This document shows positions 4,275 to 37,269 of a stretch of DNA of 51,736 nt, piece after piece. A program made the translations under genes and the position numbers. The stretch covers positions 1 to 51,736 of the IMG/VR virus record IMGVR_UViG_2737471852_000002; one strand, given 5' to 3'. Positions within the stretch are counted from its first letter, which is position 1. Each line of letters opens with the position of its first letter. Origin of the DNA: a virus. Its lineage: Duplodnaviria; Heunggongvirae; Uroviricota; Caudoviricetes. The notes under the pieces were generated by a model. It was not told the DNA's origin, ran no database searches, and was given only the letters and a program-made list of their open reading frames with translations.

Positions 4275-4762
4275 TAATACCTTTCCTCTTCTAAGATAAT
4301 TTATGTTTCAGTTTTTAAAAAGCACACCTGACATCCTCGAACTTAGAAGAGGCTTAAAAGGCGTTTGCCAAGTATGCTTTTTAAAAACTGAATAGCCCTA
4401 GATAATTTCTTATAAAGGGCCATTCATAAGGTGAAGAAATTAAAACATCTAAAGGATTCAAACGAATGAACAAAGACTTTTCGAGATGACCTCTCAGGTT
4501 GTATAAGAGGCCATGTAGCGAAAAGCATTGCACCTTTCAGAATGTTCGGTATAGAACATACCTCACCAACTCAGAATATCCATCCATCGGATTATTGAAA
4601 GAAATAAGAGAGAAATTCTCTCTATAATTAAAATTATGTCATGCTTAAGGTTATTTGTCAACAGCTTTTTAACAGATTGGTAACATTAATTCTTATTTAC
4701 CGTATTACCTACCCAGCAACCAACAAATAGCCCTAGCAACGTCCAAGCAATTATTAAACCCA

Positions 4763-5086
4763 TTAGTGAATCCTCACAGAATCCGTCACCAGAATATTGT
4801 CAGCGTACAGGATTGTCACAGCACCTTTCAAAAATTGCTCTGGGGAAATACTGTATTTATTCGTTTGCTCGATAACCAATCTTTTCATGCTGCTGTCTGC
4901 AATTGGTAGCATCATTCGAGGCTCGTTAAACTCCACCGACTGAATAAAGTCAGAGATGTTTTCTGCATTATCGGCCATCAGCTTTAACAGCCTGTCAAAA
5001 TCAATTGTCACACCTGCATCAGTGAAGCTTTGCACCATCATAGCGGTGTCGCTATCAACGAAAATCTGTAGCGGGAAGTTGTTCAT
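4763..5086 (-). CDS. hypothetical protein
   Basis: 107-aa ORF; no family recognised. Confidence 0.35.
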   Translation of the reverse strand: MNNFPLQIFVDSDTAMMVQSFTDAGVTIDFDRLLKLMADNAENISDFIQSVEFNEPRMMLPIADSSMKRLVIEQTNKYSISPEQFLKGAVTILYADNILVTDSVRIH

Positions 5087-34083: not shown

Positions 34084-34694
34084 ACCAGCAGCGCCGCCCG
34101 CGCCTTGTTGTATCGGACCTTACGATCCTCAATACCGTTCAGACCGCCGTTAATGATGCGAGTAACACGATTAATATCGGCACCGTAGATCATGCAGCCT
34201 TTAGAGGTGTAGAACCATGCAGCTGAGCGCGCAGCCTGTAGTTCCTGTTCCAGTTGTTCAGGTGAAGTCACCAAATCTAACTTCAGAGCAGCCCCGCAGG
34301 TGCGATAATTGTCGAGGCCAGTGATTTGAATTAACCCTCTGCCGCGATATTTCCAGCCGTCGCCGGGCGCTTTGTTACCCAGGCGGTTGCTATACACCAG
34401 ATTGGCGATAGCATCCTGGCGGGCTGCGTGTTCGGTTGTTCTGCCAAGCGCATCAGCCTGCTGCTGTGTGATCCTCTTTCCGAAGGTCGCCACCAGCGCA
34501 GATGGTGTGTAGTTCAAATTTTCAACTACAGCGCTAAAGCCGCCTGACTCATGACCTACCTGAGCGATGAACATGGCCTGATCCGCGGGTGCTGTAATGC
34601 CGAATTCTTTCATCGCTGCATCTACTGGTTGAAACCAGCGCACAGCCAGTCCGGCGCTGATACCAGCCGCCTTTTGAAATAATTGTTGGTTCAT
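34080..34694 (-). CDS. endolysin, glycoside hydrolase family 19-like (chitinase-type lysozyme)
   Basis: 204 aa; FIAQVGHESGGF ... KYRGRGLIQITG motifs. Confidence 0.8.
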   Translation of the reverse strand: MNQQLFQKAAGISAGLAVRWFQPVDAAMKEFGITAPADQAMFIAQVGHESGGFSAVVENLNYTPSALVATFGKRITQQQADALGRTTEHAARQDAIANLVYSNRLGNKAPGDGWKYRGRGLIQITGLDNYRTCGAALKLDLVTSPEQLEQELQAARSAAWFYTSKGCMIYGADINRVTRIINGGLNGIEDRKVRYNKARAALLV

Positions 34695-34975
34695 TAGTGC
34701 CTCAGATGATCAACCAGGCGTGCAACGTTGCCTCTGACGGCCACCAGCACGGAAAGAAAAATAGTATTCGCCACGATAATGGGCCATGAGGAATGGGGAT
34801 AAATCCCACAGAGATAGGCCAACGGAACAGCACTGTATGTAACAGTAATCAGCCAGGCTAAACGTGAAACCCAAGGACGATGCCGCGAATCACCACGACG
34901 ATAAAACATCAGAGTAATAACAACACAAGCACATAACAGCGCGTTTATAGTTGCTGTCGGGTCATTTAGCTCCAC
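34694..34975 (-). CDS. membrane protein of the lysis cassette (antiholin or second holin)
   Basis: 93 aa with about 3 hydrophobic helices between holin and endolysin. Confidence 0.45.
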   Translation of the reverse strand: MELNDPTATINALLCACVVITLMFYRRGDSRHRPWVSRLAWLITVTYSAVPLAYLCGIYPHSSWPIIVANTIFLSVLVAVRGNVARLVDHLRH

Positions 34976-35348
34976 CTGAACCTCCCCGGCGCGTTATGAG
35001 CGCCACCAGCGACCCGATATCCTGATTATTCAGGAACGTCAGGATCTTAACGGCTAAAGCAGATACGATTACGGCACCAATGGCATCCAGAGGTTTATCA
35101 CTGTATCCGGTCAAGCTTGCCAGCTTGGAGCCAACCAACCCAGAGCAAAGGATCCCGGCAATATACGACACGATAAAATATGCCAGTCGGCGCGATGCGC
35201 TCAGATCCGCTGCTGTTGCTATGTAGAATACAGCCCCTGCAAATGCGCCAAATACAACGCCGTAATCAGTTCCGGTCAGCAGTCCATAAACACTGGCACC
35301 CGTCAGGGCACCACCAGCCAGCCCAGTACCGGAAATTGGATCGGACAT
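34962..35348 (-). CDS. holin
   Basis: 128 aa with Gly/Ala-rich TM helices and charged C-terminus; first gene of the lysis cassette. Confidence 0.6.
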   Translation of the reverse strand: MSDPISGTGLAGGALTGASVYGLLTGTDYGVVFGAFAGAVFYIATAADLSASRRLAYFIVSYIAGILCSGLVGSKLASLTGYSDKPLDAIGAVIVSALAVKILTFLNNQDIGSLVALITRRGGSGGAK

Positions 35349-35460
35349 TTAGCCCCCTCTTAATTGCTGTGAGTCCTCTCAGGTATGAGGGGAAATAGGC
35401 TCAGGCTTCACGGGTTGGATTTATCAACAAAGCACGTAGCGGATGATTACCGTGAGCCGG

Positions 35461-35490
35461 AAATAAAAAAGCCCCAGCGGGTGCCGGGGC
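35461..35490 (-). terminator. intrinsic terminator (minus strand) between the late-region moron and the holin
   Basis: gccccagcgggtgccggggc hairpin with an adjacent A-run on + (U-run on the minus-strand RNA). Confidence 0.5.
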
Positions 35491-35582
35491 GAGTTATAGA
35501 TAAGTGCATGCTCTAGCAGCAAATCACTGTATTTGATATCGTTAAATCGCCAAAAATAACCCTATCAAACATGGAGAATTAT

Positions 35583-35735
35583 ATGAGTGAATCAAACAAA
35601 CCATCTGGAGAAAATAAGCCTCAACCCGCACCACAGCCTAAACCGGCTCCACAGCCAGCCGAAAGAAATCTGAGGACAGGTTATACCTTTGTTGCCGATT
35701 CTGCTGAAAACATCAGAAAAAAAGGTAAGTAAGTA
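35583..35735 (+). CDS. possible 49-aa proline-rich small protein
   Basis: GGAG RBS; MSESNKPSGENKPQPAPQPKPAPQPAERNL...; its 3' end converges on the 35713-36282 gene; may be spurious. Confidence 0.2.
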
Positions 35736-36282
35736 CTGAGATTACAAGTGCACAAACAGGGGTGAGGATTGTAGCGATCCTTACCCTTTCTAGTTCTCGG
35801 CCTATTCTGGCATTCTCTTTTTTACTCATTTCAGCCATTCTGGTTAAATCCGCAAGCCGGTAGCGCCGCAAGACGTTCAATGTTGAACGCTTTCCTGAAA
35901 ATCCTTTCGACTCAAAACCAGTGTAATCATCTTCAGTAAACCCTTTATAGCCATCATGGTAAAGCGCATAGGGTGTCGATGACACGAGAGCTCGTGACCT
36001 TACAACGAGGACGCAGCGAACAAGATAAGCCGCACACATTGCCCAGTAGACTAAAAAAACAGACATTCCAGCGGTGAGGTAATCAAAACCTGTACGTTGC
36101 GTTAATAACAAAAATGACGAGCCCACGCCAGCAATGAGTATACTCAATAACTTCTGGCCATTTTCTTTGTTTAGTGCGTTGGACTGGTGAATTTCGCGTA
36201 TACAATCCTCGCCCTGCTTCTCCAGAAAAGCAACGAGTTCGTCGTCCGCATCCAAAAAGTAATCATCGGGTAGATTATTCAT
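35713..36282 (-). CDS. membrane protein of unknown function at the Q-to-lysis moron position
   Basis: 189 aa, two central hydrophobic helices plus a C-terminal TM (ILTPVCALVISVLTYLFF); lies between the tR'-like terminator and the holin. Confidence 0.5.
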   Translation of the reverse strand: MNNLPDDYFLDADDELVAFLEKQGEDCIREIHQSNALNKENGQKLLSILIAGVGSSFLLLTQRTGFDYLTAGMSVFLVYWAMCAAYLVRCVLVVRSRALVSSTPYALYHDGYKGFTEDDYTGFESKGFSGKRSTLNVLRRYRLADLTRMAEMSKKENARIGRELERVRIATILTPVCALVISVLTYLFF

Positions 36283-36370
36283 TCCCCAACCTCACATCCT
36301 GTAATGCATCAATTTTACCTGAATGTCTCGAACCTTGGTATTGCTGTCTCCAGAAACGCAAAAAACCCCA

Positions 36371-36398
36371 CGGTGTTATCCGCAGGGCTTGAAACGAA
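36371..36398 (-). terminator. tR'-like intrinsic terminator about 50 nt downstream of the predicted late promoter
   Basis: on the minus strand ccctgcgg-ataaca-ccgtgggg followed by UUUUUU. Confidence 0.55.
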
Positions 36399-36431
36399 GG
36401 CATTAACCCATCGTTGGGACAAAATTAACAC

Positions 36432-36459
36432 AGATTCGGGAAAAGTAAATAGCCCAAGA
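36432..36459 (-). promoter_or_regulatory. pR'-like late promoter (Q-modified transcription start region)
   Basis: minus-strand TTTACT, 16-bp spacer, TAATTT, immediately downstream of the Q gene and upstream of the tR'-like terminator. Confidence 0.4.
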
Positions 36460-36486
36460 CAAAATCATAGGCTATCGCTATAGGCG

Positions 36487-37269
36487 TTACCGCGTTATCT
36501 GCTTAAGCTGTTTTTCGGCCCAGGACTCTTCGATATCAAATTTCGTGATCAGCAGGTCGTAGAATGGCTTAACAGACTTTTTCCAGGTGTCCAGGCTAAT
36601 GGCGTCAGTAATCTGGCATACAGCAGCATAGGCTTCAGTCGACGGAAGTCGTTCATACCCACGCCCTCCGCAGCGCTTACAGTCAGCCAGAACAGGAACG
36701 CCCTGTTTCTCAGTAAGAGCCTGGTTCACTGCCTTGCCGCGCCCATGGCAATCACTGCAAGAAGCACTAACCACACCAGAGCCATTACACTTTTTGCATA
36801 GCACTTTGATGGATTCTTTGACCTTCACCATCCCGGACACGGTCATTTTCCCTTCTGGCTTACGGAATTTATTGGTAAACACGTCAGCCTCAATGAAGCC
36901 CTGACCGTCACAACAATCGCACTGCTTCACGCTGGCAGCGCTGCGGGAATAGTCCTCAAAAGCGAAGGTGGCCAACTGGTGCATCACCTGAGGTTTAACC
37001 GCGGCACCGAGCTTACGCAGTGCGGCAACCTTGTCGCATTTTGTCATCGCGTACTCAGCCAGCAGACCGATCGCCCGATCCCGGTCGTTATTGCTTATGC
37101 CCATCTTGCCGAGGAAGGCGCTGTAACCCATTGCGGCGCGTTCCTGCGTCATGCCCATGGCAGCCATTATGTCGGTACCGGTCAGTGAATCGGAGGCGGT
37201 AGCGCGCGGAGAATCGCTAATCAGTGTGGATTTAGCGAAGTGGTATTTCACTGTGTTTTCAAGGTTCAT
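36487..37269 (-). CDS. late-gene antiterminator Q-like protein
   Basis: 260 aa with Cys-rich zinc-binding region (CDCCDGQGF...CKKCNGSG...CSDCHGRG...CKRCGGRG); position between nin/rusA region and lysis genes. Confidence 0.75.
   Translation of the reverse strand: MNLENTVKYHFAKSTLISDSPRATASDSLTGTDIMAAMGMTQERAAMGYSAFLGKMGISNNDRDRAIGLLAEYAMTKCDKVAALRKLGAAVKPQVMHQLATFAFEDYSRSAASVKQCDCCDGQGFIEADVFTNKFRKPEGKMTVSGMVKVKESIKVLCKKCNGSGVVSASCSDCHGRGKAVNQALTEKQGVPVLADCKRCGGRGYERLPSTEAYAAVCQITDAISLDTWKKSVKPFYDLLITKFDIEESWAEKQLKQITR

Follow-up and report, generated by a model that had tools for sequence, protein, structure and literature searches.

A conserved convergent two-gene cassette in the late cargo slot of a lambdoid prophage and its probable distant relation to PycTM/2TM membrane effectors

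Among the described systems closest to the locus analyzed here is the late leader of phage lambda, in which AACGAT is a -10-like element that holds sigma-70 RNA polymerase at a promoter-proximal pause, where the antiterminator Q loads. In Shiga toxin (Stx) phages, stx is preceded by a Q/pR'/tR' unit of this kind, from which the small RNA (sRNA) StxS arises as the short transcript. Extra genes that carry their own promoter and terminator and are inserted between conserved neighbours are termed morons, and both this concept and that of the leader are already textbook knowledge. Two further systems bear on the proteins encoded by the locus. PycTM- and 2TM-type profiles describe one functional class, that of membrane effectors activated in abortive-infection systems (PMC11224242), and in phage phi80 the level of the constitutively made defence protein TaiEcA drops when Q is overexpressed, the counter-defence gene being expressed with the late operon (PMC11364771). 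Here, these systems are compared with the region between the Q gene and the holin genes in the tailed-phage sequence IMGVR_UViG_2737471852_000002 (51,736 nucleotides (nt), referred to as the window), where a gene for a 189-amino-acid (aa) membrane protein and a convergent gene for a 49-aa protein form a compact cassette.

The cassette is a two-gene unit that is conserved across temperate phages of the Enterobacterales and Pasteurellaceae, irrespective of where in the genome it lies. An earlier note, made from the letters of this DNA alone, had described a moron with a single gene for the 189-aa protein, overlapped at its 3' end by a convergent, Pro-rich 49-aa open reading frame (ORF) with its own ribosome-binding site. 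The cargo gene and the small ORF are both there, the latter with GGAG 8 nt upstream of its ATG and a 20-nt overlap, but the small ORF is a conserved partner and the cargo consists of two genes rather than one. The 49-aa product has a net charge of +4, an isoelectric point of 9.9 and eight prolines, and the family that it matches, phrog_14506, is of unknown function. A convergent small ORF overlapping the 3' end of the large gene was recovered in 85 of the 93 related loci; these ORFs encode 47-64 aa, with a Pro/Gln-rich N-terminal half, a basic tail and a conserved C-terminal motif, [FL]xxxRxxVGDSA (or, including the tail, RxxVGDSA..RKK). None of the 51 distinct nucleotide sequences interrupts this frame, whereas each of the other five has stops in 42-51 of them; substitutions per codon position amount to 0.43, 0.34 and 0.59, with a median ratio of nonsynonymous to synonymous substitution (dN/dS) of 0.32 (outside the overlap). 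Since the frame is kept open and is constrained at the codon level, the small ORF is a protein-coding gene, and its Shine-Dalgarno sequence is likewise conserved. A tblastn search of phages with the 49-aa protein returned no match, the low-complexity filter probably masking the query.

The pair is retained in homologues at 23-36% identity that lie at differing genome positions (Table 1, last five rows), and all contexts examined are phage sequence, not plasmids or chromosomal islands. In loci L012-L014 the large gene is truncated and no small convergent ORF was seen. In L015 and L074 a transposase/integrase-like ORF (about 4570-4950) occupies the place of the small gene and the large gene is apparently intact (residues 1-187); there, the phage may tolerate a large gene that lacks its partner.

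By sequence comparison, the leader that precedes the cassette is homologous to the Q-pR'-tR' unit of lambda, in line with the lambda-like unit that had been proposed. The gene previously read as Q-like is a homologue of lambda Q, to which it aligns end to end with 37% identity (Pfam match in Table 1). The promoter-like element TTTACT-16-TAATTT can be aligned, column for column, with lambda pR' (TTGACT-17-TAAATT); phages HK225 and mEp237 have it in identical form. It matches the consensus weakly (about 7 of 12 positions) and was not listed by a generic promoter scan of the window; it was accepted because of the alignment with lambda pR', not for consensus strength. The 15-mer CAACGATGGGTTAAT, which contains AACGAT, is identical in lambda, HK225, mEp237 and the window, where it occurs once against 0.01 chance matches expected, and homology with lambda would place the start of transcription at A36415. 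A tR'-like terminator comes after it, with a stem spanning 36390-36363 that is followed by the T run; the predicted fold of the short leader RNA has an energy of -23.9 kcal/mol (z = -3.5), and the homologous hairpin is annotated as 'rho-independent terminator' in the HK225 record. The earlier note had recognized both elements, which are present, but had set them about 8-10 nt away from where they lie: the promoter sequence at 36432-36459 instead of 36449-36422, and the strong hairpin at 36371-36398 instead of 36390-36363.

Relative to lambda Q, the Q protein of the window carries a Cys-rich insertion of 53 aa (residues about 114-166). This insertion is rich in CxxC pairs, has a DnaJ_CXXCXGXG-like match (E = 3e-7) and looks like an additional zinc-ribbon module. 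Without Q, the pR'-tR' unit would yield an RNA of about 59 nt with two hairpins (36357-36415, minus strand), which may be likened to lambda 6S RNA and to the StxS sRNA of Stx phages; an Rfam search of 35200-36600 gave a single sub-threshold chance match, and the leader RNA is without an Rfam match.

Homology of the leader with HK225, mEp237 and E. coli H6-type prophages ends after GCGTTTCTGGAG, at about 36346, and restarts at the T run of the second terminator, with about 80 nt towards the holin. Between these two points lie a reversed gene of 136 aa in HK225, a gene of 213 aa in mEp237, about 260 nt without gene annotation in E. coli H6, and 875 bp with two genes in the window. The hairpin stem upstream of the shared T run differs from cargo to cargo, each cargo supplying its own stem. 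The linker of about 80 nt is 91-94% identical to those of HK225, mEp237, Louie and Chris1, is also present in E. coli H6, and has been kept although the cargo differs and, in several of these phages, the holin too; its fold is not significant (z = -0.8), and it may be a recombination joint or an unrecognized regulatory element. Because the same leader and linker enclose other cargo in these relatives, the slot is a cargo-swap site, located at the position of stx in Stx phages. The suggestion that the 189-aa gene sits where Stx phages carry stx is supported. In lambdoid loci, the Q gene just ahead of the cassette belongs to one of four different families, those of lambda, phage 82 and ST64B and that of the 180-aa Q annotated in phage 673R7; the holin genes that follow fall into several families unrelated to one another, and the endolysins differ as well. 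The slot behind pR'-tR' is where Shiga toxin genes sit and are expressed, and conserved cargo at this position would therefore be transcribed at a very high level upon induction.

In L045, L046, L071 (3827-3912), L075 and L083 (4814-5127), transfer RNA genes are present alongside the cassette in the Q-holin slot, either as a tRNA-Ser gene upstream of the cassette or as clusters of two to four tRNA genes downstream. The arrangement resembles that of Stx phages, in which tRNA genes stand ahead of stx.

Putative regulatory elements of the cassette were counted in 64 non-redundant loci. A TA[AG][AG]AT motif is found at -34 to -40 of the ATG of the large gene in 45 of them, and the L096 homologue, at 31% identity, is likewise preceded by a TAAAAT-like element. 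Before the small gene, TGnTAYnnT occurs at -46 to -57 of the ATG in 53/64 loci, and the 18-mer TGATATCGTTAAATCGCC around this extended -10 is conserved more than coding sequence. The -35 regions of both predicted promoters are poor. An intrinsic terminator is present upstream of the cassette in 57 of the 64 loci and a late-strand terminator downstream of the large gene in 50, lying just beyond the small gene in about 33; in the window, the second of these had been located exactly, at 35461-35490, by the earlier note. The terminator scan found no plus-strand terminator within the 189-aa gene, and the transcript of the small gene may therefore run antisense into it. Given these promoter-like elements, expression of the cassette need not rest on Q alone, and Q-dependent read-through across it may come in addition.

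Two other readings of the motif upstream of the small gene were dropped: a sigma-E or sigma-54 promoter, for which spacing and consensus misfit, and a minus-strand promoter within the motif, whose -10 is not conserved. Viral contigs L053-L062 form a subgroup without TGATATCGTTAAATCGCC that has a different conserved leader before the small gene; their upstream neighbour is an unidentified ORF of 104-187 aa, not a recognized Q gene.

Table 1. Positions in the window of the cassette, its leader and its flanks, followed by the genome context of the pair in distant relatives.
Feature	Position	Strand	Basis or context
Q antiterminator gene, 260 aa, lambda-Q homologue	36487..37269	-	PF03589 E = 2e-45; phrog_127
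pR'-like promoter: -35 TTTACT 36449-36444, 16-nt spacer, -10 TAATTT 36427-36422	36422..36449	-	lambda pR' alignment
Initial transcribed region CAACGATGGGTTAAT, 15-mer containing AACGAT	36402..36416	-	15/15 identity to lambda pR'
tR'-like intrinsic terminator, 11-bp stem and T run	36357..36390	-	terminator scan, folding
Swapped-in cargo of about 875 bp, running from the junction behind GCGTTTCTGGAG on the left to its own terminator hairpin	35471..36345	-	homology breakpoints
-10-like TAAAAT, candidate cassette promoter, 35 nt before the start codon of the 189-aa gene	36312..36317	-	conserved TA[AG][AG]AT
189-aa inner-membrane protein (acidic N-terminal helix, TM1, TM2, basic cytoplasmic helical region, TM3; TM, transmembrane helix)	35713..36282	-	ORF, phrog_11870, AlphaFold, hydropathy
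49-aa basic, proline-rich, hydrophilic protein, convergent to the 189-aa gene, 20-nt overlap	35583..35732	+	phrog_14506 E = 5e-26; Prokaryotic Genome Annotation Pipeline (PGAP)
Extended -10-like TGATATCGT, candidate promoter, 49 nt upstream of the ATG of the small gene	35534..35542	+	TGnTAYnnT conserved
Cassette terminator, late strand, beyond the small gene and its promoter	35461..35490	-	8-bp stem, 7 GC pairs, T run, -17.5 kcal/mol
Non-coding linker common to phages with other cargo and holins	35392..35470	-	91-94% identity
Phage_holin_8 gene, first of the lysis cassette	34962..35348	-	PF16931 E = 1e-34, phrog_198
L096 pair			downstream of cI and a Bro-N gene (homologue 31% identical)
L099 pair			replication region
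L101 pair			after RusA
L100 pair			structural module, after a Mu-F head gene
L104 pair			Avibacterium prophage

The 189-aa protein matches phrog_11870, of unknown function, over its full length (E = 6e-84). Hydropathy and an AlphaFold model agree on the topology that had been read from the sequence, with two central, adjacent TM helices (about 45-62 and 68-94) and a third at the C-terminus (about 166-189). The model (predicted local distance difference test score, pLDDT, 80.6) consists of three long helices, at residues 14-62, 68-92 and 134-188. Hydropathy and charge combined predict a cytoplasmic N-terminus with a net charge of -8, TM1 and TM2, a cytoplasmic region of net charge +5, and TM3; residues W80, G52 and P104 are invariant or nearly so across 47 diverse members. 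The family is small: clustering at 90% identity gives about 115 groups, and 66 representatives remain at 50% identity among 1.8 billion proteins; named members are almost all from the Enterobacterales, and further members come from the Pasteurellaceae. A profile search with the diverse family alignment reached nothing beyond the family, and searches of PDB sequences, with the single sequence as well as with a profile, returned noise only (E of 0.03 or worse).

Comparison of family members with profiles of known effectors suggests that the 189-aa family is probably related, at a distance, to the PycTM/2TM effectors. The contact is made through P0146, which matches the window protein in a phmmer search of a library of 1.8 billion proteins (E = 6e-12), whose subfamily alignment matches that of the window family with 100% probability (E = 4e-50), and which has the same convergent small partner; for these three reasons it is regarded as a secure homologue. 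P0146 matches the PADLOC PycTM profile with E = 1.5e-8 over positions 7-152 of 160, matches the profile of the 2TM effector of the cyclic-oligonucleotide-based antiphage signaling system (CBASS) with E = 4e-5, and carries a precomputed PF18967 match. P0097, which is 51% identical to the window protein, matches a second PycTM profile (E = 4.8e-4), and there are weaker matches to PycTM, 2TM effector and CARF_TM profiles among P0134 (PycTM, 7e-3), P0128 (2TM, 4e-3) and P0124; contact with the CBASS 2TM profile is limited to P0146 and P0128. The earlier note could not place the protein, which does lack Pfam, NCBIfam and PADLOC matches of its own but which can be placed loosely, through its homologues, as a distant PycTM/2TM relative. 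No cyclase or cGAS/DncV-like nucleotidyltransferase (CD-NTase) is annotated in the matching prophage of E. coli AR_0119, and none lies beside the distant homologues examined. With no such enzyme near any member, the cassette is not a Pycsar or CBASS system.

On this basis, we tentatively favour a function in which the cassette encodes a phage-borne membrane effector and its small regulator, serving phage exclusion or abortive infection. The 189-aa protein would act as a membrane-perturbing effector and the 49-aa protein as its cognate regulator or neutralizer. The two predicted charges are complementary, which we count in favour of pairing, and the small protein (+4) may bind the acidic cytoplasmic N-terminus of the effector (-8); convergent transcription of the small gene could also extend, as antisense, into the gene of the effector. 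The two weak promoters would hold the effector in check in the lysogen, and the pair would guard the cell against other phages by exclusion or aborted infection. Upon induction, Q-modified RNA polymerase would pass both tR' and the cassette terminator, and this read-through would raise the effector mRNA and suppress the convergent small gene.

Several observations weigh against this proposal. The 189-aa protein has no match in Pfam, NCBIfam or PADLOC even at E = 1, and structure searches with its model retrieved generic long-helix bundles only, such as BAR domains. In the Pfam scan made here, the PycTM match reaches only E = 0.016; the PycTM link is transitive, and it relies on profiles of hydrophobic proteins, in which composition can inflate scores. 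Both promoter elements of the cassette are sequence predictions only, and neither was reported by the generic promoter scan. The arrangement in L015 and L074 speaks against an obligatory antitoxin. The late-phase logic also has a weak point, in that a toxic effector driven by Q while its partner is silenced might lyse the cell early.

The strongest competing explanation, which we nevertheless consider unlikely, is that the 189-aa protein serves non-lethal superinfection exclusion or lysogenic conversion: an inner-membrane protein that blocks DNA entry or alters the envelope, as modelled by SieA of P22 and gp15 of HK97, the small gene merely tuning its level. A small inner-membrane protein encoded in a prophage moron with a predicted promoter of its own and a terminator would suit such a role, as would the distant L096 pair downstream of cI, a typical place of exclusion genes, and the tolerance of the large gene without the small one in L015 and L074. 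Against this stand the lack of any resemblance, in PHROGs or PADLOC, to exclusion proteins already described and the fact that the only family-level similarities are to pore-forming or membrane-disrupting effectors, while the strict purifying selection on the small partner would be left unexplained.

A role as a lysis accessory, with the 189-aa membrane protein acting as a holin-like or antiholin-like timing regulator that is controlled by Q together with the holins, is suggested by its place directly between pR'-tR' and the holin in lambdoid loci, but is quite improbable. The holins and endolysins that accompany the cassette vary, the former among several unrelated families; phages that share its leader and linker do without it; and the cassette is set off by terminators on both sides and by a promoter-like element of its own. 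Homologues with the small partner lie far from lysis genes, and no holin family is matched by the protein or by 78 relatives; the view of the earlier note that this is not a recognizable lysis component is upheld on both counts.

Less probable again is a selfish toxin-antitoxin (TA) or addiction module without a defence role, in which a membrane toxin and a small antitoxin would stabilize the prophage or simply hitch-hike. The autonomous two-gene unit with convergent predicted promoters, moving between positions in phage genomes, and the resemblance of the large protein to membrane effectors would both be in keeping with such a module; the restriction of the contexts examined to phage sequence, with no plasmids or chromosomal islands, and the existence of an intact large gene without the small one are not. 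Most prophage TA modules have, moreover, proved to act in phage defence. The least probable alternative, that the small ORF is no functional protein and that an antisense RNA regulates the 189-aa gene in a type I-like manner, could draw on the convergent transcripts with 3' overlap, the very highly conserved 5' leader of the small gene and the possible antisense run-through, but it is contradicted by a frame open in 51/51 sequences with the others mostly closed, by the excess of third-position variation and the low dN/dS outside the overlap, by the conserved Shine-Dalgarno sequence and C-terminal peptide motif (RxxVGDSA..RKK), and by a hydrophobic partner that, at 189 aa, is unlike type I toxins.

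If the favoured effector-regulator reading is taken one step further, the cassette would represent a phage-restricted two-component class, in which a cyclase-less PycTM-like effector is directly controlled by a convergent proline-rich mini-protein and which, in lambdoid phages, is wired to the Q transcript so that the switch from lysogeny to lysis flips the ratio of effector to regulator. This extension is doubtful; were it true, it would constitute a new logic of prophage defence or self-immunity. Should the PycTM/2TM link hold, phages would carry signal-independent versions of these effectors, with a mini-protein in place of the nucleotide cyclase. Literature searches on the pair, on PF18967/DUF5706 and on defence genes in Q-holin slots found no description, and neither the convergent two-gene unit nor a PycTM-like protein that has a mini-protein partner but no cyclase appears to have been described. 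Many temperate phages of enteric bacteria and of Pasteurellaceae carry the cassette, both genes of which are called 'hypothetical' in the databases; at about 875 bp it is compact and directly clonable. Even if it proved to be without a phenotype, it would still be a well-delimited cargo that swaps at a defined junction.

In the structural description of the region we place high confidence. This stretch, from an E. coli prophage, is 99.7-99.9% identical to prophages of six complete E. coli genomes, and PGAP labels both cassette ORFs 'hypothetical protein' in the matching genomes, including AR_0119. Genes on the minus strand follow in the order RusA, YlcG, Q (260 aa), non-coding leader, 189-aa ORF, hairpin terminator, two holins, GH19 endolysin and spanins, with the 49-aa ORF on the opposite (plus) strand, overlapping the 3' part of the 189-aa ORF; all features that the earlier note had set on the minus strand behind a Q-like gene were recovered in the window. 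The lysis cassette opens with tandem genes of distinct holin families (34694-35348, minus strand), Phage_holin_8 (128 aa) and then Phage_holin_3_7 (93 aa), which overlap by 14 nt and have a GH19-type endolysin gene downstream.

Set against the systems outlined at the beginning, the locus shares with the lambda leader a homologous Q, a promoter that aligns with pR', an identical 15-nt start containing AACGAT, an intrinsic terminator and cargo between terminator and holin. It differs from lambda in the 53-aa Cys-rich insertion of Q, in the -35/-10 spacer, which is the site of the lambda Q-binding element and diverges in the window, and in the length of the terminated RNA (about 59 nt versus 194 nt in lambda). 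As in morons in the sense of Hendrix and Juhala, the cargo is present, absent or swapped between identical flanks and has its own terminator and its own, predicted, promoter-like elements; unlike them, the cassette comprises two convergent genes instead of one and is found at several other positions in phage genomes. Type I TA systems such as txpA/ratA and par of pAD1 likewise have convergent transcripts with 3' overlap and one membrane-protein partner, but there the membrane protein is a peptide of under 60 aa, as opposed to 189 aa here, where the opposing gene encodes a protein under purifying selection.

With PycTM (PF18967) and the CBASS 2TM effectors, the family has in common a size of about 160-190 aa and matches of its members to the profiles over nearly their full length. 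In contrast to those systems, the cassette family has no adjacent PycC or CD-NTase, the window protein itself stays below every profile threshold, and a conserved small protein replaces the signal-producing enzyme, in contexts that, as far as examined, are all phage-borne. The 'noncontiguous operon' of TaiEcA/AtiEcA in phi80 also places an opposite-strand pair inside a late unit in which transcription by Q can alter the ratio of the two products (PMC11364771). This likeness is one of gene arrangement alone: in phi80, the Tai gene precedes the packaging genes and its product targets the assembly of tails, whereas here the late-strand gene encodes a membrane protein. If the proposed wiring to Q is true, the cassette would be the second case, after Tai/Ati of phi80, of an opposite-strand pair balanced by late-operon transcription.

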